Below the pieces are notes generated by a model. It ran no database searches, was not told the origin of the DNA, and saw nothing but the letters and a program-made list of their open reading frames with translations. The position numbers and the translations under genes were made by a program. A DNA stretch of 64,000 bases from a phage, in assembly GCA_026209155.1 (NCBI GenBank), contig GCA_026209155.1_3056.1. One strand, given 5' to 3'. Shown piece after piece: positions 1 through 62,080 of this stretch; position 1 is the first letter of the stretch, and every line of letters starts with the position of its first letter.

Positions 1-524
<524 letters not shown>

Positions 525-551
525 AATAAAATGGGCCTTGTGGCCCACTCC

Positions 552-1730
552 TTAAAAATATTTTTTAAAACTCATCATAACTTTATCATCAACATCATTA
601 TCAATCTGTGCTACAAGGTAAGATGACAGTTCTACTTCTTGTGGCGCGGATTGAACATTATCAGAATTAAGATATTCACGAATCCAAGGATACGGATGTT
701 TAACCGGAGCATCAGTAATTGGGCATGGAAGACCGCACTGTTTCATACGAGATACAGTTAAGTAATCAATAAAGCTCCACATGCTATTTGTATTTAATCC
801 AGGAACATCGCCATCTTTAAATAAATGAACTGCCCAGTCTTTTTCTTGACGGTTAACTTCCATGAAAATATCAACTGCTTCTTGTTCACACTCTTGAGCA
901 ATTTTAACCCATTCATCGCCATCAGTACCAGATTGAAGTTGACGAATAATATATTGGGTGCCTTTAAGGTGAAGCTGTTCATCGCGTGCAATGAACTTCA
1001 TAATCTTGGCATTACCTTCCATGATTTCCATGTTTTTATGGAAGTTAAAGGTACATGCGAAAGATACATAAAAACGAATAGCTTCCAATGCGTTGATTAC
1101 ATGCAAACAGAGGTAAAGAGATTTCATTAGCTCATGCTTCCAATATGTCTCATGCTCAATAGCATCTTCAATAACGTCTTCGTCTGCATTAATTTCTTTT
1201 TGGTATTCGATATCAGCTTTAGCGTTTTCCCAATAACGAGTTTTAATCAGAACATCATCATAATAACGTCCAATGGATTCAGCACGTTTCATAATAGCTT
1301 CATCTAATACAATCTCATCAAATACCTTTGACGGATCAGTATAAAGATTTCGCATGATATGTGTATATGAACGGCTGTGAATAGTTTCACTAAAAGTCCA
1401 TGTAGCAACCCATGTATCAAGACTCGGGTCTGAAATTAATGACATAAGTACAGCAGATGGCGCACGACCCTGAATGCTATCCAAAAGTGATTGATACTTC
1501 AGGTTATTAGTAAAAATATTTTGCTGATACTGAGGAAGCTTATTAAACTGTGCAGCATCCATCATTAAGTTTACTTCTTCAGGACGCCAGAAAAATGACA
1601 ATTGCTTTTCGGTTAAATCTTCAAAAACTTTATGACGTTGAATATCATAACGCGCAATACCAAGACCTGAACCAAAAAACATAGGTTCTTTTAAAACATC
1701 AACTGGATTTGTATTAAAAACTGTGCTCAT
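552..1730 (-). CDS. nrdB: Ribonucleotide reductase small subunit, uninterrupted
   Basis: 392-aa ORF with di-iron RNR beta character, immediately downstream of nrdA; no intron. Confidence 0.93.
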   Translation of the reverse strand: MSTVFNTNPVDVLKEPMFFGSGLGIARYDIQRHKVFEDLTEKQLSFFWRPEEVNLMMDAAQFNKLPQYQQNIFTNNLKYQSLLDSIQGRAPSAVLMSLISDPSLDTWVATWTFSETIHSRSYTHIMRNLYTDPSKVFDEIVLDEAIMKRAESIGRYYDDVLIKTRYWENAKADIEYQKEINADEDVIEDAIEHETYWKHELMKSLYLCLHVINALEAIRFYVSFACTFNFHKNMEIMEGNAKIMKFIARDEQLHLKGTQYIIRQLQSGTDGDEWVKIAQECEQEAVDIFMEVNRQEKDWAVHLFKDGDVPGLNTNSMWSFIDYLTVSRMKQCGLPCPITDAPVKHPYPWIREYLNSDNVQSAPQEVELSSYLVAQIDNDVDDKVMMSFKKYF

Positions 1731-1781: not shown

Positions 1782-4046
1782 TCATAATTTACAGGATGAA
1801 CAATCTTCAGCTTTTGGAGTTTCTATTTCATAATCATCAGTACCAGAACCATCACGGGTATTATGATAATAGAAATTTTTAATGCCATAATACCATCCGT
1901 ATAGCATGTCATCAATCATTATTGACATTGGAACCTTTCCTTTTGGAAAAATCTGCGGGTCATAGTATGTATTTGCTGAAGCTGATTGACATACCCATTT
2001 CAGCATAATAGCTACCTGTGTAAGATAAGGTTTATTACCTTTCTTAGCTAATTTCCACGTATAATCATATAGGTCTATGTTATGCTCAATATTGGGCACG
2101 ACTTGATTAAAGGAACCCTCTTTTGATTCTTTAACAGAGACTGGTCCACGTGGAGGCTCGATACCGTTTGTACTGTTAGAAACTTGGGAAGATGACTCAC
2201 ATGGCATAAGTGCTGATAATGTGCTATTACGGATGCCAAAGAGCTTAAGGTCTTCCCGCAGCGACGACCAGTCACAAACGTATTTTGGAGCTGCGATTTG
2301 GTCAATCTTTTTATTGTACCAGTCGATAGGTAATTCACCTCGAGACCAACGAGTGTCTGAATAATATTCGCAAGGTCCTTTTTCTTTGGCGAGCTTAATG
2401 GATGCTTTAATGAGTCCATACTGTAATCTCTCAAATAGTTCATGTGTTAAATCGTTGGCATCTTCATAAGAAGCAAAGTTACTTGCCAGCCAAGCTGCAT
2501 AGTTTGTAACACCTACACCGAGGTTACGACGCTTTTTAGCTTTTTCTGCTTCAGGAACTGGATATCCTTGGTAATCCAAAAGATTATCAAGAGCACGAAC
2601 TTGAACTTCTGCCAATTCATTAATTTTATCTTGGTCTTGCCAGTCAAAATTATCTAGTACGAATGCAGAGAGAGTGCACAATCCAATTTCAGCATCAGGA
2701 CTATTCACATCATTTGTTGGAATAGCAATTTCACAACACAAGTTACTCTGGCGAATAGGTGCCTTTTCACGAATAAACGGAGTATAGTTATTCGTATTAT
2801 CAATGAACTGTACATAAATCCTTGCTGTTCCTGAACGTTCAGTCATGAGCAATTCAAATAGTTCACGGGCTTTAATACGCTTTTTACGAATATTAGGGTC
2901 TTTTTCTGCCGCTTCGTATAATTCACGGAAACGGTCTTGGTCTTTAAAATAAGAATAATAAAGCTCTCCACCCATTTCATGTGGACTGAACAAAGTAATG
3001 TAGTCGTTCTTTCCAAAACGTTCCATCATTAGGTCATTCAGTTGAACGCCATAATCCATATGACGAATGCGGTTTTCTTCTACGCCTTTGTTATTTTTCA
3101 AAACGAGAAGATTTTCAACTTCCAAATGCCAAATAGGATAATAAGCAGTAGCAGCGCCGCCACGAATTCCACCCTGTGAACATGATTTAACTGCAGTCTG
3201 AAAATGTTTCCAAAAAGGAATAACACCGGTATGGCGTACTTCACCCATGCCAATCTTAGAACCTTCGGCACGAATCATACCAACGTTAATACCAATTCCA
3301 GCACGTTTGGAGATATATTCAACAATTGAAGCGGAAGCCTTATTGATAGACTTCAATGAATCTCCTGCCTCAATAACAACACATGAACTAAACTGTCGAG
3401 TCGGAGTACGGCAACCAGCCATAATAGGAGTTGGCAATGAAATCTGTCGAGTAGATACTGCTTCATAAAAACGGATAACATGTTTTAATCTATCAACAGG
3501 TTCGTCTTGATGCAATGCCATTCCAATAGCCATAAATGCAAACTGTGGAGTTTCATAAATTTGACCAGTGGTTTTATCTTTAACGAGATATTTTTCTTTT
3601 AATTGCATCGCCCCGGAATAAGTAAATTCCATATCCCGCTCGTGCTTAATTTTTGATTCTAAAAATGTAATTTCTTCTGCAGAATATTTTGACAACAATT
3701 CAGGGTCATATTTACCTTCATTTACACAGTAAGAAATATGGTCAATAAATGAACGTGGTTCATATTGTCCGTAAACATGCTTACGAAGAGCAAACATTAA
3801 ACAGCGTGCAGCTACATATTGATAATCAGGCTCTTCAACTGAAATAGAATTCGCAGCAGCCTTAATTACAATGGTTTGAATGTCATCAGTGGTCATTCCA
3901 TCACGGAGATATGATTTAATATTTTCATATAATTCATAAGGATCTACAGATGTTCCTTCGGCTGCCCAAGATAAAACTTTAATAATTTTTTGCGGGTCAA
4001 AGCTCTGAGAAACACCACTACTTTTGATAACATTAATTAATTGCAT
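1782..4046 (-). CDS. nrdA: Ribonucleotide reductase large subunit
   Basis: 754 aa, same length as T4 NrdA; class I RNR alpha motifs; end signature CSSCKL-like. Confidence 0.95.
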   Translation of the reverse strand: MQLINVIKSSGVSQSFDPQKIIKVLSWAAEGTSVDPYELYENIKSYLRDGMTTDDIQTIVIKAAANSISVEEPDYQYVAARCLMFALRKHVYGQYEPRSFIDHISYCVNEGKYDPELLSKYSAEEITFLESKIKHERDMEFTYSGAMQLKEKYLVKDKTTGQIYETPQFAFMAIGMALHQDEPVDRLKHVIRFYEAVSTRQISLPTPIMAGCRTPTRQFSSCVVIEAGDSLKSINKASASIVEYISKRAGIGINVGMIRAEGSKIGMGEVRHTGVIPFWKHFQTAVKSCSQGGIRGGAATAYYPIWHLEVENLLVLKNNKGVEENRIRHMDYGVQLNDLMMERFGKNDYITLFSPHEMGGELYYSYFKDQDRFRELYEAAEKDPNIRKKRIKARELFELLMTERSGTARIYVQFIDNTNNYTPFIREKAPIRQSNLCCEIAIPTNDVNSPDAEIGLCTLSAFVLDNFDWQDQDKINELAEVQVRALDNLLDYQGYPVPEAEKAKKRRNLGVGVTNYAAWLASNFASYEDANDLTHELFERLQYGLIKASIKLAKEKGPCEYYSDTRWSRGELPIDWYNKKIDQIAAPKYVCDWSSLREDLKLFGIRNSTLSALMPCESSSQVSNSTNGIEPPRGPVSVKESKEGSFNQVVPNIEHNIDLYDYTWKLAKKGNKPYLTQVAIMLKWVCQSASANTYYDPQIFPKGKVPMSIMIDDMLYGWYYGIKNFYYHNTRDGSGTDDYEIETPKAEDCSSCKL

Positions 4047-4363: not shown

Positions 4364-4592
4364 ATTGTTTTTCCGTTAAAACAGTAATATCATAATAACA
4401 ATCAGAAGAAGTTTTAACTGTAGAAATTTTATTATCAAAATACTCACGAGTCATTTTATGAGTATAATATTTTTTGCCATAAATGATAATAGGCTGATTT
4501 GGTCCTGGAACTTCTAACTCACTTGGGTTAGGAAGTGTAAAAAGAACTACACCAGAAGTATCTTTAAATCGTAAAATCATATATCCTCGCAA
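4317..4592 (-). CDS. Hypothetical small protein (nrdA.2-like)
   Basis: 91-aa ORF in operon context between td exon 2 and nrdA. Confidence 0.5.
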
Positions 4593-4603
4593 TTAATAAT
4601 TAA

Positions 4604-4915
4604 TTACACCGCCATTTTTCCTTTAATAGGAGGGTGTGATTCGTAACCTTTAAGAACGAAATCTTTAGGCCTGAGTTTAAGAACATATTTTAATTGTTCT
4701 TTAGTAGAAAGATAACGGAATTTATAAGGCAATCCGCTTATTACCAGTTCACAAAGCTCTTTAGGTTCACGACGTAAAATTTCTTTACATTGTTCTACGT
4801 GATTCATATAGATATGAGTATTACCGCCAGAAAATATCAAATCTCCAGGAATAAGATTACACATCTTAGCTACAATATGAACTAACGCAGCATATGATGC
4901 AATATTAAATGGAAG
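4604..4915 (-). CDS. td: Thymidylate synthase exon 2 (C-terminal 103 aa, begins LPFNIASY)
   Basis: TS motif LPFNIASYAALVHIVA; the track ATG at 4916-4918 is the last three intron nucleotides, not a real start. Confidence 0.9.
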   Translation of the reverse strand, partial: LPFNIASYAALVHIVAKMCNLIPGDLIFSGGNTHIYMNHVEQCKEILRREPKELCELVISGLPYKFRYLSTKEQLKYVLKLRPKDFVLKGYESHPPIKGKMAV

Positions 4916-5931
4916 CATTATGTTCAGATAAGGTCGTTAATCTTACCCCGGAATTATATCCAGCTGCATGTCACCATGCAGATCAGACTATATCTCCAAC
5001 TTGTTAAAGCAAGTTGTCTATCGTTTCGAGTCACTTGACCCTACTCCCCAAAGGGATAGTCGTTAGGCATTTATGTAGAACCAATTCCATTTATCAGATT
5101 TTACACGATAAGTAACTAATCCAGACGAAATTTTAAAATGTCTAGCTGCATCTGCTGCACAATCAAAAATAACCCCATCACATGAAATCTTTTTAATATT
5201 ACTAGGCTTTTTACCTTTCATCTTTTCTGATATTTTAGATTTAGTTATGTCTGAATGCTTATGATTAAAGAATGAATTATTTTCACCTGAACGATTTCTG
5301 CATTTACTACAAGTATAAGCAGAAGTTTGTATGCGAACACCGCACTTACAAAACTTATGGGTTTCTGGATTCCAACGCCCGTTTTTACTTCCGGGTTTAC
5401 TGTAAAGAGCTTTCCGACCATCAGGTCCAAGTTTAAGCATCTTAGCTTTAACAGTTTCAGAACGTTTCTTAATAATTTCTTCTTTTAATGGATGCGTAGA
5501 ACATGTATCACCAAACGTTGCATCAGCAATATTGTATCCATTAATTTTAGAATTAAGCTCTTTAATCCAAAAATTTTCTCGTTCAATAATCAAATCTTTC
5601 TCATATGGAATTTCTTCCAAAATAGAACATTCAAACACATTACCATGTTTGTTAAAAGACCTCTGAAGCTTTATAGAAGAATGGCATCCTTTTTCTAAAT
5701 CTTTAAAATGCCTCTTCCATCTCTTTTCAAAATCTTTAGCACTTCCTACATATACTTTATTGTTTAAAGTATTTTTAATCTGATAAATTCCGCTTTTCAT
5801 AAATACCTCTTTAAATATAGAAGTATTTATTAAAGGGCAGTCCTACAATTTAGCACGGGATTGTCTACTAGAGAGGTTCCCCGTTTAGATAGATTACAAG
5901 TATAAGTCACCTTATACTCAGGCCTCAATTA
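4916..5931 (-). mobile_element. Group I self-splicing intron in td (1016 nt) carrying the I-TevI gene
   Basis: Exon 1 ends ...CTTGGGT; intron begins TAATTGAGGCCTGAGTATAAGG (minus strand), ends ...AATG before exon 2 CTTCCATTTAAT; matches remembered T4 td intron ends and length. Confidence 0.9.
5063..5800 (-). CDS. Intron-encoded GIY-YIG homing endonuclease I-TevI (245 aa)
   Basis: N-terminal GIYQIKNTLNNKVYVGSAKDFEKRWKRH GIY-YIG motif; NUMOD3-like and Zn-finger region (CKCGVRIQTSAYTCSKC); lies inside the td intron. Confidence 0.92.
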   Translation of the reverse strand: MKSGIYQIKNTLNNKVYVGSAKDFEKRWKRHFKDLEKGCHSSIKLQRSFNKHGNVFECSILEEIPYEKDLIIERENFWIKELNSKINGYNIADATFGDTCSTHPLKEEIIKKRSETVKAKMLKLGPDGRKALYSKPGSKNGRWNPETHKFCKCGVRIQTSAYTCSKCRNRSGENNSFFNHKHSDITKSKISEKMKGKKPSNIKKISCDGVIFDCAADAARHFKISSGLVTYRVKSDKWNWFYINA

Positions 5932-18299: not shown

Positions 18300-18304
18300 A
18301 TTGA

Positions 18305-18330
18305 GGGAGCCTTCGGGTTCCCTTTTTCTT
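18305..18330 (+). terminator. Hairpin with UUCG loop plus U-tract after gene 35
   Basis: GGGAGCC-UUCG-GGUUCCC followed by TTTTTCTT. Confidence 0.6.
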
Positions 18331-23148: not shown

Positions 23149-23805
23149 ATGGCAGCACCTAGAATATCATTTTCGCCCTCTGATATTCTGTTGGGTGTTC
23201 TAGATCGCTTGTTCAAAGATAACGCTACCGGGAAAGTTCTTGCTTCCCGGGTAGCTGTCGTAATTCTTTTATTTATGATGGCGATTGTTTGGTATAGGGG
23301 AGATAGTTTCTTTGAGTACTATAAGCAATCAAAGTATGAAACATACAGTGAAATTATTGAAAAGGAAAGAAATGCACGCTTTGAATCTGTCGCCCTGGAA
23401 CAACTCCAGATAGTTCACATATCATCTGAGGCAGACTTTAGTGCGGTGTATTCTTTCCGCCCTAAAAACTTAAACTATTTTGTCGATATTATAGCATATG
23501 AAGGAAAATTACCTTCAACAATAAGTGAAAAATCACTTGGAGGATATCCTGTTGATAAAACTATGGATGAATATGCAGTTCATTTAAATGGACGTCATTA
23601 TTATTCCAACTCAAAATTTGCTTTTTTACCAACTAAAAAGCCTACTCCCGAAATAAACTACATGTACAGTTGTCCATATTTTAATTTGGATAATATCTAT
23701 GCTGGAACGATAACCATGTACTGGTATAGAAATGATCATATAAGTAATGACCGCCTTGAATCAATATGTTCTCAGGCGGCCAGAATATTAGGAAGGGCTA
23801 AATAA
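23149..23805 (+). CDS. t: Holin T
   Basis: 218 aa as in T4; single N-terminal TM segment and large periplasmic domain. Confidence 0.9.
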   Translation: MAAPRISFSPSDILLGVLDRLFKDNATGKVLASRVAVVILLFMMAIVWYRGDSFFEYYKQSKYETYSEIIEKERNARFESVALEQLQIVHISSEADFSAVYSFRPKNLNYFVDIIAYEGKLPSTISEKSLGGYPVDKTMDEYAVHLNGRHYYSNSKFAFLPTKKPTPEINYMYSCPYFNLDNIYAGTITMYWYRNDHISNDRLESICSQAARILGRAK

Positions 23806-26810: not shown

Positions 26811-28135
26811 TTGATTTCCTCTAAATCTTTGGTGTATTCAGTAACTACATCAGTAGTTTTCCAATATTCGTTTTCTTCTTTTTTAGCTTTAGCTTCTTCA
26901 GCAAGTTTCTTTGCTTCATCGGAAGTCATATGAAAAATATTCATTCCAACTAGTTTATCAACATAAGAAGAATACATCTCAATTTTAGAAAGTTCTTCGG
27001 TCAGTTCTTTGCGAGTTTTACCCTGTACAACGATTTCACCTGAAATTACTTTCTTAATGAAATGTGCCTTGGCAAAGGCTAAACGAAATGCTGATTCAGT
27101 TTCTTTGATTTTGTTATCAATTCGTTTTTGGACATAAGTTTTACGAACTTCAACAAAGTCTTTAATTAAATCAACTACGTTATCGTAAACTTGCAGCTTT
27201 CCTTTCTCATTAATGACTGTAATATTCTGAGAACGACGCTCAATCAACCCGAAGTCTTTCATAATTTTTGCATGGCGTTCTTCTTCGTTATCGCTCAAGG
27301 AATATTCTTTGCGGAATTTAACTTTAAAGCCAAAGCCATGCTCACCGCAAGCATCATCCCATGTAATGAAGCCTTTATCTTCAAGCGGATCTAAGATTTT
27401 ACTCACGTAAGTTTCACGATCATACTTATACGGAATCTCAGTGATATTCATTTGAGTTCGTGAAGTAAACTTGTACGTTCCACGAATTTCATATTGACCG
27501 TCAATTTCAACGACTTCACCACGAAATTCTGGGAATTCTACCTTCGGTTTAGTTACTTTCTTTCCTTGAAGAGCTTGTAGTACAGCTTTCTTGACAGAAG
27601 AAACACTATGAGGAAGAATGTAAGTTGCATAACCAGTTGCAATACCGGAAACACCATTAAGAAGAACAGTAGGAATAATAGGCAAATAGAAAGCAGGAGG
27701 AATGTGTTCTTTATCTTGATGTACCGGAGCATATTCAGTATCTTTATATACGTTATAGAAATTTTTACTTACACGAGCAAAAATATAACGGCTTGCCGCT
27801 GCTTTTTGAACGGTACGAGAACCAAAGTTTCCTTGACCATCTAACAAAGGAAAGTTATTATTCCAAGTATTAGCCATCAAAGCCCCCGCATCTTGTGCAG
27901 AGTTTTCGCCATGATGATATCCAAGGTCAGCTACACCACCTGCAATAGAAGCGAGTTTGTGAAACTTATCTTTATTTCCCCGTGCCAAATCAAGAGCTCG
28001 AGCGATAACAAATCGTTGAACTGGCTTAAATCCATCAATCATATTTGGAATAGCACGGTTTTCAACCGTGTACATAGCATAAGCCAATGCTTCATTATCA
28101 ATGATACTTTTTAAATCGCGATTATTCAGTTGCAT
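26807..28135 (-). CDS. 52: DNA topoisomerase II medium subunit gp52 (GyrA-like)
   Basis: 442 aa as in T4 gp52; GyrA-like N-terminus. Confidence 0.93.
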   Translation of the reverse strand: MQLNNRDLKSIIDNEALAYAMYTVENRAIPNMIDGFKPVQRFVIARALDLARGNKDKFHKLASIAGGVADLGYHHGENSAQDAGALMANTWNNNFPLLDGQGNFGSRTVQKAAASRYIFARVSKNFYNVYKDTEYAPVHQDKEHIPPAFYLPIIPTVLLNGVSGIATGYATYILPHSVSSVKKAVLQALQGKKVTKPKVEFPEFRGEVVEIDGQYEIRGTYKFTSRTQMNITEIPYKYDRETYVSKILDPLEDKGFITWDDACGEHGFGFKVKFRKEYSLSDNEEERHAKIMKDFGLIERRSQNITVINEKGKLQVYDNVVDLIKDFVEVRKTYVQKRIDNKIKETESAFRLAFAKAHFIKKVISGEIVVQGKTRKELTEELSKIEMYSSYVDKLVGMNIFHMTSDEAKKLAEEAKAKKEENEYWKTTDVVTEYTKDLEEIK

Positions 28136-28139
28136 AAAT

Positions 28140-28280
28140 TTACCATACTAGTGAATGTAGTGCCATAATAACATCAGAAATGAAAAGCACGACTTGAATT
28201 AATCCGAACATTACTCCATAATATAGTGCTACCAATAAAGCAGCAAGGGCTAATGAATAGCCCAAGATTTTCTTAATCAT
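28140..28280 (-). CDS. Small hydrophobic membrane peptide (46 aa), not in ORF track
   Basis: Hand-translated MIKKILGYSLALAALLVALYYGVMFGLIQVVLFISDVIMALHSLVW; between ac and 52. Confidence 0.4.
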   Translation of the reverse strand: MIKKILGYSLALAALLVALYYGVMFGLIQVVLFISDVIMALHSLVW

Positions 28281-28428
28281 TAGATAACAACGCAAATGTT
28301 AAATATGCACACATACCCTGAGCTAAAGCTTGCGAAAACACGCTGCTGACATCAATACAGATAGTTAAAACACATGCTACTATCCAACAAATAAATGAAA
28401 TAACTCCTAATAATTTTGCGATATTCAT
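28273..28428 (-). CDS. ac: Small membrane protein, 51 aa, probable Ac (acridine sensitivity)
   Basis: Hand-translated MNIAKLLGVISFICWIVACVLTICIDVSSVFSQALAQGMCAYLTFALLSND; 51 aa equals T4 Ac length; between stp and 52. Confidence 0.5.
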   Translation of the reverse strand: MNIAKLLGVISFICWIVACVLTICIDVSSVFSQALAQGMCAYLTFALLSND

Positions 28429-28435
28429 ATTTTCC

Positions 28436-28516
28436 TCACTGGCGTCCGAAGACGCCTTTAGTTTTAAGATTGTTACGATAGAACTGCATCACATGTTCAT
28501 TATGGAAATTACTCAT
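28436..28516 (-). CDS. stp: Stp peptide (26 aa), not in ORF track
   Basis: Hand-translated [26 protein letters not shown]; ATG overlaps ndd stop (TAATG); 3' end contains a CUUCGG hairpin. Confidence 0.8.
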
Positions 28517-28971
28517 TAATATGCCTGCAAAACAAATTTAAAGTTATCAGCCAACATACGGTTCATTTCTTCAAGTGTTTGATACTCAGAATGATGATTA
28601 CGAGTAAACGCTAAAGCTAACTGACCCTTTCCAAATCCCGTCGTCAGAGGTTTCATCTTAGAAGCAGGCAAATAAAATACCGTGTATGGAACATTGTTAT
28701 TTGCAATAGTACGCGCAAGCTGAGACCGACGCTGGCGAATATGACTTAGAACTGCACTGAATCCTTGTTTAGAACGCTGATTACCTACATAAAATCGTGC
28801 AGATACACACGGACTATCAAATGGACCACCAAATTTACTCACTAAAAAGTAAAATCCAGGGTTAGACAAAATGTCTTTATGCGGAGTTCCAAAAACCCAT
28901 TCACCGCCCTTGATTGTACCAATAACAGTTGCGCCTGCATTATTCAAATCAGTAACAGTCATATATTTCAT
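28516..28971 (-). CDS. ndd: Nucleoid disruption protein Ndd
   Basis: 151 aa as in T4 Ndd; position between denB and stp. Confidence 0.88.
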
Positions 28972-29030
28972 GTTAATTTCCTCTAATTATTTTCTACTCC
29001 AAGGCCGCATGAATACATACGGCCGATAAA

Positions 29031-29246
29031 TTAATCGTCGCAGTCGACGCTCAATTCCCAGAACTCTTCTACAGTATAAGTTTCAGTATCATTTTCAATA
29101 CAGAAACGTTCATTACTGTTATTTGCTAAAGTAGCGTTAACTGTCATTTTCTCGCTAGTGCTTTTAAGAGGTGAAATACGAATTAACTGATCACCATTAT
29201 CTAAACAGAAAATTTCACCAACTTTTACATCTTTAAAAATTTTCAT
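29031..29246 (-). CDS. Hypothetical small acidic protein (ndd.x-like)
   Basis: 71-aa ORF. Confidence 0.5.
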   Translation of the reverse strand: MKIFKDVKVGEIFCLDNGDQLIRISPLKSTSEKMTVNATLANNSNERFCIENDTETYTVEEFWELSVDCDD

Positions 29247-29361
29247 AATTCACCTCAAGGAGTATAAAATCCAAATGCAGTTGTTGACCATCCCATCCAA
29301 TATGGGAAATTTGCGCCAATGTAAAACATGAGAATATAAAACCAACCGCTCAGCAAATTCA

Positions 29362-29580
29362 TCATTTTACACCATTCCAAATTGTTTCAACCACAGATTT
29401 CAAACCATTTTGGTGAATATCCATTCCGACAACTGCCATCAAATAGATTCCAACCACAACTGAACCCAAGGAGAAAATCAGCATGAAAATGAATAAAGCT
29501 GGAAAAATATTATCGAAAAACCATTCAATAAATGTAAAAGCACTGCGTTTACGCTTCATATTTTCCTCACATAAATCCAA
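29362..29580 (-). CDS. Hypothetical small membrane protein
   Basis: 72-aa ORF with hydrophobic core ALFIFMLIFSLGSVVVGIYLMAVVG. Confidence 0.5.
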   Translation of the reverse strand: MDLCEENMKRKRSAFTFIEWFFDNIFPALFIFMLIFSLGSVVVGIYLMAVVGMDIHQNGLKSVVETIWNGVK

Positions 29581-29680
29581 AGTAAGCGTTTAATACATCA
29601 ATCATTAAAACGATTGGGAATATACTCAAAACTACTAGTATTATAACTACATTCCATATAGCTTTAACAATCTTTTTCAT
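29567..29680 (-). CDS. Small membrane peptide (37 aa); track ORF 29567..29815 trimmed to the internal Met after the promoter
   Basis: MKKIVKAIWNVVIILVVLSIFPIVLMIDVLNAYFGFM; upstream part of track ORF is read-through of promoter DNA. Confidence 0.45.
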   Translation of the reverse strand: MKKIVKAIWNVVIILVVLSIFPIVLMIDVLNAYFGFM

Positions 29681-29923
29681 TTTCTGTTCCTCCGTAGTTG
29701 ATAGGGTAATAATACCACAGAGGAACAGTCTTGTAAACAACTTTTTTAAAAATATTCGTAATAAATGTGAATGCCAATCACTACTGCCGAAACTTGCGCA
29801 ACCCACCATGCACAAGCAATAAGTACAGAATTCAAAATTTTCATAATAACCTCATCACAAAAGTAAATGTTAAACAAATTAATGGAATACTAATTAACCA
29901 AATAAAACACCACCATAATGAAC

Positions 29924-30196
29924 TCATAGTTCAATCTCAGCGATTTTCATTTCATTACTATTAATAGCCGCTTTAAGACTATCTGAAAGAATTACATCCC
30001 AGTGGTCATTCATATGACCATTAACTAAACGTGTAATTTCTTCGGGAGTTGAAAAATAAGGCGTATCAGACTCCCAATGCGATAGTCCCAAGCGAGTATA
30101 AATCATACCTTCATCATCGCTAGAATATTCAACTGACACAAACTCATCAGTTATTTTATGTTTAGCGTAATAAAATTTAAATTTCATTTTACTCAA
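29924..30196 (-). CDS. Hypothetical protein
   Basis: 90-aa ORF. Confidence 0.5.
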   Translation of the reverse strand: MSKMKFKFYYAKHKITDEFVSVEYSSDDEGMIYTRLGLSHWESDTPYFSTPEEITRLVNGHMNDHWDVILSDSLKAAINSNEMKIAEIEL

Positions 30197-31089: not shown

Positions 31090-31120
31090 TTCCCTTAAAA
31101 CAAAAGGGCCGAAGCCCTTT
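31090..31120 (-). terminator. Hairpin with UUCG loop plus U-rich tract
   Basis: Minus-strand AAAGGGC-UUCG-GCCCUUU followed by UGUUUUAAGGG. Confidence 0.55.
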
Positions 31121-31318: not shown

Positions 31319-31346
31319 AATTTTCCTTAGTTAAGGGCCGAAGCCC

Positions 31347-32285
31347 TTATTTAAATTGTTCAGTAACGTCTTCAACTACTTCGTATTGACAGGTACGCAT
31401 TTTAGCATCGTTGTAATCAATCGGAATTGATACTACATCGCGAGGATGTACTTTAACTTTTACAACTCGGCTGGTTGAACTGCCAAAGTGACGAATATAA
31501 GATTTAGAACACACATGCAGACCACGAGAACAAGTTTGTGTATCATCGTCATTCACACGAGTACGTGGCATTTTAACTACTTTACCAGGACTGTTATCAA
31601 AGGTATTTGAGTGACAGTCAAAGTAATTGCTGCGAACTACTTTCCAAGCATAGAAGTAGCCGTCTTCTGTAATTTCAATATCGTTTGCTACCAAGAAATC
31701 AAAGAGTCGAGATACTGCTTTTTGGCTTGGGTTTTCCAGCAGATTTTCCAAGAACGGAAAATAAAATTCAAAGTTTTCACCTTTTTCCATCGAATCAAGA
31801 ATACGATCAACTAAACCAGACCGCAATTCAATATTTTGATAGAACAGGCTTCCACCTTCAATTCGAACATCACCGGAAATATATTTTTCAACAGCGCGAC
31901 GAACATTAATTTTTTGTGCCGCTTCTTCCAATTTATCTGCAACAAGCAGATTAAGAATTTCCTGGAAGTTTGAATGAGTATTAGGAGTTGCGTTATAAGT
32001 TACGCCATCAACAGTAATTGAAATGAATTTTTTAGATGCATTCCAAATAATGTCAGATTTAGCAACTGGAGCAATAGCTACATCACTCTTAACTTCAACT
32101 GTAATGTCACCGCTAATGGTAACTTTGGAGCGCTCAACTTCTTCAGCATTTTTCAAAACACGACGGATTGTGTCAACCGATACACCTTGCCAATCAGCCA
32201 ATTCCTGCTGGGTATAATTACCACTTGAATACAGTTTGACAATTTCAGCTTGTTCGTTTTTGGTCAGGCATTTAATATTGTACAT
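31347..32285 (-). CDS. rIIB: rIIB protein
   Basis: 312 aa as in T4 rIIB; N-terminus MYNIKCLTKNEQAEIVKLYSSGNYTQQELADWQGVS. Confidence 0.93.
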   Translation of the reverse strand: MYNIKCLTKNEQAEIVKLYSSGNYTQQELADWQGVSVDTIRRVLKNAEEVERSKVTISGDITVEVKSDVAIAPVAKSDIIWNASKKFISITVDGVTYNATPNTHSNFQEILNLLVADKLEEAAQKINVRRAVEKYISGDVRIEGGSLFYQNIELRSGLVDRILDSMEKGENFEFYFPFLENLLENPSQKAVSRLFDFLVANDIEITEDGYFYAWKVVRSNYFDCHSNTFDNSPGKVVKMPRTRVNDDDTQTCSRGLHVCSKSYIRHFGSSTSRVVKVKVHPRDVVSIPIDYNDAKMRTCQYEVVEDVTEQFK

Positions 32286-36563: not shown

Positions 36564-36629
36564 TTATCCTCGTTTGGTTTCGGGAATATTATACTCCGGT
36601 AATCATAAAGCTAAAGGCCCGAAGGCCTT

Positions 36630-36902
36630 TTATTTAAAACGGATAGTCGAATCCTTGAAGAATAGACCAGAACACACGGTTCCTTCTACTTTCTGCCCAG
36701 TAGGTCCAATAGCACGAAATCCAGTATGCTGGAAATCATTTTCAGAGCAACCGAACCAATTATATCCAGTGATTTCAATATTAGTAAAACCACTTGAAGA
36801 CAAAACTTTGGTTGCATTATCGGCATCAGTACATCCTACTAAAGATACTGCTAATACTAATGCCGCGATAGAACGATTAACATATTTCATAATTTCACTC
36901 AA
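36630..36902 (-). CDS. Putative lipoprotein (signal peptide plus lipobox LVGC)
   Basis: 90-aa ORF, N-terminus MSEIMKYVNRSIAALVLAVSLVGCTDADN; followed by UUCG hairpin. Confidence 0.55.
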   Translation of the reverse strand: MSEIMKYVNRSIAALVLAVSLVGCTDADNATKVLSSSGFTNIEITGYNWFGCSENDFQHTGFRAIGPTGQKVEGTVCSGLFFKDSTIRFK

Positions 36903-46994: not shown

Positions 46995-47028
46995 AGTAAA
47001 ATAAAAAAGGACTCCCGAAGGAGTCCTT
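46995..47028 (-). terminator. Rho-independent terminator downstream of soc
   Basis: Minus-strand AAGGACUCC-UUCG-GGAGUCCUU followed by UUUUUUAUUUU. Confidence 0.7.
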
Positions 47029-52265: not shown

Positions 52266-52634
52266 TTAAAAGAATTTAAATTTTTTCTTTGACCTTTTAT
52301 TAAATGCATCTTGTAGTTGCATTGTAATACATTTTTCTACATGAGGAGCTAACTCAGCTTTTCTTTCTTGGTCAAGAACAGCAAAGTCCATTACAACCTT
52401 TCCATCAACCCAATCCAGTTTAGTTACATACACTATATGTGTAGAACCATCTTCTAGTTTAATGACAATCTCCTGGATAACATTTTCCATAGCGGATTTA
52501 ATTATCTTAAGAGACTCATTAAAAAGACGTTCTTTTCTTTCTTCTTCCCCCTCCGAAGAGGGGGATTCATCGATAATTTCTAGATCTAAATCTAAATCTA
52601 AATCATCTTTATTCATTAAATTCTTCCATATCAC
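52266..52634 (-). CDS. 40: gp40-like protein (head assembly) with DLDLDLDLE acidic repeat
   Basis: 122-aa ORF between uvsX and 41. Confidence 0.6.
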   Translation of the reverse strand: MIWKNLMNKDDLDLDLDLEIIDESPSSEGEEERKERLFNESLKIIKSAMENVIQEIVIKLEDGSTHIVYVTKLDWVDGKVVMDFAVLDQERKAELAPHVEKCITMQLQDAFNKRSKKKFKFF

Positions 52635-59420: not shown

Positions 59421-59446
59421 TCCAAATAAGGGGCCGAAGCCCCTTG
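59421..59446 (-). terminator. CUUCGG hairpin terminator/stabiliser downstream of regA
   Basis: Minus-strand AAGGGGC-UUCG-GCCCCUU followed by AUUUGG; -10-like TATAAT follows. Confidence 0.55.
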
Positions 59447-61365: not shown

Positions 61366-61390
61366 GTAAATTATAAAGGGCCGAAGCCCT
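61366..61390 (-). terminator. CUUCGG hairpin between genes 45 and 44 (partial terminator / RNA stabiliser)
   Basis: Minus-strand AGGGC-UUCG-GCCCU followed by UUAUAAUUU. Confidence 0.5.
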
Positions 61391-61393
61391 CTA

Positions 61394-62080
61394 TTAAAAA
61401 TCGTGGGTAGAATCAGCTTCAAGAGCTACTACATAATTCGCATGTTCACCTTCAAATTTAGCAGCACCTTGTTTACCTTTTGCCCAGAGCAGAAGTTTAT
61501 AATTTCCTGGTTGCATTTTCATATTTGCCATATTGATAATGAAATTAAATGTATTTTCACCATCATAATCACCAAGAGTCAAAGAATATTTAACACGGGT
61601 TAAAGCAGAATCTTCTACTTTATTAAAACCGTTAATTACGATTTTACCTTCTTTTACCGTGATAGCAATTGTATCAATTTGCAGACCACGGGATACACGC
61701 AACAGTTGTTGAAGGTCTTCAGCTTTAATTTCAGTAACAACAGATGCTACCGGGAATGGAATTGGTTTATTAGGAGCAACTACTGTACTCGGATCGGCTG
61801 CTGGCCAAAAAATTGTTGAACGAGCATCAGCAATTTTAATATTTCCATCTTCTGACTGGGAAATTTCTGCATCATCATTAACTAGAGACAGAATACCGAG
61901 AAAACCGTTCAAATCGTAAATTGCTACATCAAAATCAATAACGTCAGAAATATTTGCTTCCGCATAAGTTGTACCATTAACTGCACGAGTCATAATAAAT
62001 TGACCAGATTTAAGCATAATACCGGAGTTAATAGTAGCGAAATTTTTCAAAATATTCAGTGTGTCTTTAGATAATTTCAT
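61394..62080 (-). CDS. 45: Sliding clamp gp45
   Basis: 228 aa as in T4 gp45; N-terminus [46 protein letters not shown]. Confidence 0.93.
   Translation of the reverse strand: MKLSKDTLNILKNFATINSGIMLKSGQFIMTRAVNGTTYAEANISDVIDFDVAIYDLNGFLGILSLVNDDAEISQSEDGNIKIADARSTIFWPAADPSTVVAPNKPIPFPVASVVTEIKAEDLQQLLRVSRGLQIDTIAITVKEGKIVINGFNKVEDSALTRVKYSLTLGDYDGENTFNFIINMANMKMQPGNYKLLLWAKGKQGAAKFEGEHANYVVALEADSTHDF

Follow-up and report, generated by a model that had tools for sequence, protein, structure and literature searches.

The minus strand of positions 28436–28516 carries what is, judged by sequence, the known and already characterised stp gene of T4-type phages, with a predicted product the same as that of T4. 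Within the 64,000-nucleotide stretch of phage DNA analysed here (the window), it is almost certainly the canonical Tequatrovirus stp, set in the minus-strand early-gene run ndd–stp–ac–52.1–52 and specifying the T4 Stp peptide; no part of the sequence speaks against this reading. The copy itself brings little new biology: Stp, PrrC, EcoprrI and Pnkp/Rnl1 form a textbook layered phage–host conflict, and earlier work was done on this very peptide sequence. The residual value is a warning about an annotation gap, together with the finding of a Stp family located mostly on siphovirus-size phage genomes. The features of the locus are as follows.

28436..28516, minus strand: stp coding sequence, with ATG start, 26 codons and TGA stop (from translation, T4 identity, PF08133 and PHROG 6763).
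28516..28971, minus strand: ndd (nucleoid disruption protein), 151 aa, directly upstream of stp with a one-base overlap (PF06591, 296 bits; PHROG 1102; T4 annotation).
28518..28514, minus strand: TAATG, the overlap of the ndd stop and the stp start (from sequence and ORF coordinates).
28456..28441, minus strand: C(UUCG)G hairpin GGCGUC-UUCG-GACGCC (GGCGTCTTCGGACGCC), fold −11.5 kcal/mol.
28434..28437, minus strand: GAGG Shine-Dalgarno of ac, overlapping the stp TGA and beginning 3 nt past the hairpin (identical in T4 and PEC04).
28273..28428, minus strand: ac (acridine resistance), 51 aa, directly downstream of stp (position and length as T4 ac; PHROG 2501).

A preliminary description had matched a 26-residue translation at this locus to T4 Stp, leaving the strand unstated. 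The peptide is encoded by the reverse complement of the interval, and translation of the plus strand of 28436–28516 yields no Stp peptide. Aligned to T4 Stp (NP_049878), 26/26 residues are identical, so the match holds. At the DNA level the gene departs from T4 by two synonymous third-position differences (AAT/AAC and CAT/CAC), with a few more in the flanks; the window phage differs from T4 in being another Tequatrovirus. Pfam PF08133 ('Anticodon nuclease activator family') covers residues 1–26 of 26 with 75.3 bits (cutoff 25), and PHROG 6763 ('activator of host PrrC lysyl-tRNA endonuclease') matches at 4.4e-21. Searching 2.3 Gb of phage DNA with the peptide (tblastn, E around 1e-10) returned at least 99% identity in 423 phage records, and identical or near-identical peptides occur in more than 500 T4-type records. 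With 43 ORFs of 20 aa or more overlapping the same 3-kb stretch around stp, a 26-codon open frame alone is no evidence for a gene; the case is built on identity and evolutionary pattern as read from the alignments, not on the presence of an ORF.

Gene order agrees with that of T4. The gene lies between ndd and ac and upstream of gene 52, an order repeated in the T4 and PEC04 annotations (165505–165585 in the T4 reference record, between ndd and ac), and the further neighbours follow in T4 order as a 52.1-like DUF7396 ORF and the gene 52 topoisomerase subunit. Position 28516 is an A that serves both as the last base of the ndd TAA and as the first of the stp ATG, bearing out the overlap first described, and the TAATG junction recurs in T4, PEC04 and most T4-type loci. 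This overlap is a probable means of ndd–stp translational coupling: ribosomes terminating on ndd would probably go on to translate stp, which is predicted to be expressed in this way. The locus accordingly resembles that of T4 in its 26 residues, in having ndd upstream and ac downstream, in the TAATG overlap, in the C(UUCG)G hairpin and in the ac ribosome-binding site. T2-type Stp is identical over residues 1–18 and occupies the same place after ndd, but differs in having another C-terminal tail, a length of 27–28 aa and no GC-rich hairpin stem.

Two further observations concern the neighbourhood. Read from its TTG start, the 52.1-like ORF (28140–28295, minus strand; DUF7396, 80.6 bits) shares 23 nt with the end of ac, as against 8 nt between 52.1 and ac in T4. 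Because the DUF7396 profile match begins only at residue 6, the true start is probably an internal ATG, as in T4. A RegB site (GGAG) at the ac ribosome-binding site was considered and ruled out, as the sequence there is GAGG. The window as a whole is of Tequatrovirus type, its best match over 24 kb in the phage collection being ~95–96% identical, with no exact record there. Its first 600 nt are 100% identical to Shigella phage Sf25, with indels further on; by these matches the window is a mosaic.

Comparison with more distant copies points clearly to purifying selection on the peptide, rather than on DNA or RNA, since synonymous changes far exceed non-synonymous ones. The copies compared come from ~44-kb contigs and Kagunavirus K1ind2 and carry the tail [TA]KGVFGK. 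Over codons 2–24 a Kagunavirus-type copy (L012) differs by nine synonymous and no non-synonymous changes, K1ind2 by ten and one; for Kagunavirus-type copies overall, pS is 0.74–0.82 and pN 0–0.02. More distant siphovirus copies give pN/pS of 0.11–0.35 with synonymous sites saturated. These distant homologues align only across residues 1–18/19. That limit fits the genetics of the T4 peptide, in which loss-of-function suppressors cluster in residues 4–14, and deletion of the last eight codons lowers activity just moderately, leaving the C terminus largely dispensable (PMC3014915). Both residues 1–18 and the suppressor region 4–14 of the window Stp are wild-type T4.

The activity given in the preliminary description agrees with the literature: T4 Stp inhibits the type IC enzyme EcoprrI, whereupon the PrrC anticodon nuclease is activated (PMC3014915, PMC12707154, PMC12409349). 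Penner et al. 1995 characterised the T4 peptide (reviewed in PMC3014915). It relieves EcoprrI restriction with modification unaffected, and also inhibits EcoR124I, which has no PrrC, but not type IA enzymes (PMC3014915). A 2025 review presents the Stp/PrrC pair as the prototype of defences that respond to an anti-restriction protein (PMC12409349). Because the window peptide is identical to the one studied experimentally, it would be expected to inhibit type IC restriction (EcoprrI, EcoR124I) and to activate latent PrrC. Mechanistically, Stp should bind the host type IC restriction–modification complexes and block DNA restriction; in hosts with prrC inside the restriction–modification locus, this binding would unmask the tRNA-Lys anticodon nuclease of PrrC, and the phage would then survive only by repairing the cut tRNA with polynucleotide kinase-phosphatase and RNA ligase 1.

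Such repair of cleaved tRNA by Pnkp and Rnl1 is documented for T4 (PMC3014915). Stp itself has no part in the repair, which falls to Pnkp (pseT) and Rnl1 (rnlA); it is an anti-restriction factor that triggers a host nuclease. The preliminary description had counted stp, with an rnlA gene at the window start, as part of a tRNA-repair circuit. The genes at that end are these.

61..1, minus strand: rnlA (RNA ligase 1), first 20 codons, running off the window edge (relatives annotate rnlA here; the residues equal the N-terminus of phage PST Rnl1).
114–548, minus strand: denA.
552–1730, minus strand: nrdB, a single uninterrupted 392-aa ORF.
1782–4046, minus strand: nrdA.

The start codon and 20 codons of rnlA are therefore present, and the rest of the gene falls outside; relatives have a full rnlA at the matching position. 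For the circuit, stp and the start of rnlA stand, whereas pseT is absent from the window; in the closely related phage PST it lies about 2.9–3.8 kb beyond the point of the window start. The remainder of rnlA and pseT would be supplied by the adjoining DNA, to judge from synteny with relatives. The T4 nrdB gene carries a group I intron; the window nrdB appears to be an intron-less allele, like that of phage PST.

Homologues outside T-even phages were sought with degenerate DNA patterns of the shared core motif, [FWH]HNEH[VI]MQ[FWL][YH]R..[LI]K. Every siphovirus peptide examined passes the PF08133 cutoff (30.8–67.4 bits). Most are 25–27 aa long, and some, such as that of ZL19, are N-terminally extended to 30 aa. 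Carriers include Kagunavirus K1ind2, the Drexlerviridae ZL19, XT34 and U136B, and members of Skatevirus, Cedarrivervirus and Caminolopintovirus. The sequences fall into three subfamilies: subfamily A (ending [RK]) in T-even phages, Kagunavirus and Braunvirinae; a second, ending [HQY]RIKK[MI][LI]NSTNC, in Tlsvirus-type Drexlerviridae; and subfamily C, with MSNWHNEHIMQWYRRRIKAI[IT]NSYE[VA], in Skatevirus, Cedarrivervirus and Caminolopintovirus. Siphovirus copies resemble T4-type Stp in size, core motif and PF08133 match. They differ in sitting in unrelated genomes among other neighbours, in having their own strong Shine-Dalgarno instead of an ndd overlap and in lacking the hairpin; two of the three subfamilies also have divergent tails. 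The loci, numbered by their own records, are listed here.

L017, 2501–2578: Stp-like locus of K1ind2.
L018, 2393–2473: Stp-like locus of U136B.
L019, 2501–2581: Stp-like locus.
L024, 2483–2575: Stp-like locus.
L025, 1975–2052: Stp-like locus.
L026, 966–1046: Stp-like locus.
L027, 2501–2584: Stp-like locus.
L031–L074: Stp-like loci from IMG/VR.

In IMG/VR the core motif was found on 57 contigs, of which ~13 are T4-size and ~40 measure 31–53 kb, with a few short fragments making up the rest. Across 185,579 species-representative bacterial and archaeal genomes it was found in none, so that no prophage or host copies were recovered. The plasmid collection gave a single real match, a 44-kb E. coli record of Kagunavirus size, and no Stp homologue on conjugative or true plasmids. 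A few GenBank records already label siphovirus ORFs as Stp; our literature search found no paper joining Stp, PrrC and Drexlerviridae.

Several of these genomes hold features of their own. U136B (Tlsvirus; L030) has its stp-like gene at 2393–2473 and further ORFs at 3043–3606 and 4532–5107; the stp-like gene is followed, 570 nt downstream, by a 187-aa homologue of the T4 Pnkp 3'-phosphatase (HAD) domain (tblastn 3e-7), and a nearby ORF is weakly similar to the N-terminal region of T4 Pnkp. The U136B genome yielded no Rnl1 homologue. XT34 has an annotated polynucleotide kinase 2.4 kb downstream of its stp-like gene. Some 170-kb T4-like genomes have two stp-like copies ~295 nt apart flanking ac (at 1234–1314 and 1498–1575 in L020, phage NC-G, Dhakavirus; also in L069 and L072). 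The first of the pair is Gaprivervirus-type and the second T4-type with no ATG in place; this second copy may represent a duplicate in decay or a form extended at its N terminus. On a 4-kb metagenome contig (L010, 226–450), a Kagunavirus-type stp lacks its stop and runs on in frame into the downstream ORF, giving 74 aa, which may reflect a real fusion or a homopolymer sequencing error.

From this distribution we propose a wider reading, which we put forward tentatively, as plausible while falling a little short of probable. Stp would be a 25–27-aa family of virulent phages only, mostly with siphovirus-size carriers (31–53 kb; Kagunavirus, Drexlerviridae, Skatevirus-like); the T-even copy would perhaps be horizontally shared or a relic, its main effect being to expose T-even phages to PrrC, and the tail would have been re-coded in the T4 lineage as a C(UUCG)G hairpin serving the ac message. 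Sharing or relic status is suggested by a protein almost identical to the Kagunavirus copy while synonymous sites are saturated. If siphovirus DNA is unmodified, as expected, a block of type IC restriction would be directly useful there. The PF08133 peptides of siphoviruses raise two questions: whether such peptides counter type IC restriction generally, and whether guards of the PrrC type also act against siphoviruses.

A related doubt is whether the peptide, though made, owes its retention in ordinary hosts to a role other than a type IC block, so that the effect on EcoprrI and PrrC is a by-product of another target. Glucosyl-hydroxymethylcytosine already shields T-even DNA from type I enzymes, and hundreds of T4-type phages keep the exact 26 residues even though these count against the phage on prr+ hosts; a 2025 review (PMC12707154) still lists the way in which Stp inhibits EcoprrI as unknown. 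We nevertheless judge this unlikely: most contigs with the core motif are siphovirus-size, where anti-restriction would be directly useful if, as expected, the DNA is unmodified, the inhibition of EcoR124I extends to an enzyme unaccompanied by PrrC, and no alternative target is known. Inhibition of type IC restriction remains the preferred account of the peptide.

The hairpin forms a second layer of information in the gene. As first described, it takes up the last codons, namely codons 21–25 (GGC GUC UUC GGA CGC) and the first base of codon 26, with a stem of six Watson–Crick pairs and a UUCG loop closed by C:G. Apart from this hairpin, no significant structure emerged when the whole 121-nt stp region was folded (z = −0.84), and an Rfam scan of 27000–30000 at E up to 1 gave no match. 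The stem is kept in Gaprivervirus and in 25-aa T4-type variants with wobble-compatible changes only; compensatory double changes were found in none of the compared copies. Kagunavirus copies encode the same GVFG tail with other codons (GGA GUG UUU GGA) and form no structure (0.0 kcal/mol). The hairpin, which the Kagunavirus-type copy lacks, is therefore confined as an RNA feature to the T4 lineage, where it is overlaid on the dispensable part of Stp. Using the window's own codon usage, the exact all-Watson–Crick codon set has a probability of 1.1e-4, and a stem of at least 5 bp with a UUCG loop one of 0.022. The GVFGR peptide is itself predisposed to pair, with an 8.5% chance of any stem of at least 5 bp. 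Given this predisposition and the wobble-only variation, RNA-level selection on the hairpin is suggested but falls short of proof.

Hairpins of this kind are common in the window, where UUCG-loop stems of at least 5 bp number 16, against 3.7 in shuffles. At least eight GC-rich C(UUCG)G hairpins, that of stp among them, lie on the early-gene (minus) strand. The others located are these.

61373–61394, minus strand: C(UUCG)G hairpin.
59428–59445, minus strand: C(UUCG)G hairpin.
52546–52565, minus strand: C(UUCG)G hairpin.
47007–47028, minus strand: C(UUCG)G hairpin.
36613–36630, minus strand: C(UUCG)G hairpin.
31332–31349, minus strand: C(UUCG)G hairpin.
31103–31120, minus strand: C(UUCG)G hairpin.
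18303–18324, plus strand: C(UUCG)G hairpin.

These are mostly AAAGGGC-UUCG-GCCCUUU with flanking A/T tracts. The C(UUCG)G tetraloop is abundant in T4 mRNA (Tuerk et al. 1988, summarised in PMC4371310). The stp hairpin resembles the hairpins of T4 mRNA in its C:G-closed UUCG loop, GC-rich stem and early-transcript strand, and differs from them in lying within a coding sequence and in lacking flanking A/U tracts. An intrinsic terminator of the stp message was considered and rejected, since the sense-strand tail AGUGAGGAAAAUAUG holds the ac Shine-Dalgarno and start codon and has no U-run. Placed 3 nt before the ac ribosome-binding site, the hairpin would most likely be an element of mRNA stability or folding and not a terminator.

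On the opposite strand the same inverted repeat reads GGCGTCCGAAGACGCC followed by the T-rich TTTAGTTTTA, a terminator-like pattern with an antisense fold of −10.3 kcal/mol, which would allow it to be an intrinsic terminator of plus-strand (antisense or late-direction) transcripts that lies in stp incidentally. We consider this very unlikely. The nearest upstream plus-strand ORF of at least 75 aa ends at 23805, 4.6 kb away, and the long ORFs from 23806 to beyond 34474 are all on the minus strand, bar one of 78 aa nested in gene 52. Moreover, the loop reads as the exceptionally stable UUCG on the minus strand only, the strand that also carries the remaining C(UUCG)G hairpins of the early region. 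A minus-strand element near the start of ac remains the favoured interpretation.

The gene was described at the outset as hidden, and a survey of public records upholds this. Using the stp interior as query (28440–28512, avoiding the ndd overlap), we took 60 records at even steps through 530 matching ones: ten name the gene, four call it 'hypothetical', two mark a terminator only, one is without any annotation and 43 have nothing there, so that 45/59 annotated relatives in this evenly spread sample are without a CDS at the stp position. That this is a non-coding ndd–ac spacer whose hairpin terminates transcription and whose 26-codon ORF arose by chance, as might be read from the records annotating just 'terminator' or, more often, nothing, and from the abundance of chance short ORFs, is improbable in the extreme, given that the sense-strand stem runs into AGUGAGGAAAAUAUG instead of a U-run, that the peptide is conserved, with synonymous change only, in Kagunavirus-type genomes without the hairpin, that curated family models match, and that the function of the identical T4 ORF is proven both genetically and biochemically (PMC3014915), detection of the peptide and loss-of-function missense stp suppressors both being already on record for T4.

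Where the gene is annotated, the names vary between 'stp', 'activator of host PrrC...', 'suppressor of prr' and 'type IC restriction inhibitor', the last in two records (AdolfPortmann and WilhelmHis). At 81 nt including the stop codon, stp is below common gene-calling limits such as the 90-nt minimum gene length of Prodigal. Anti-defence surveys that rely on called proteins will undercount it.
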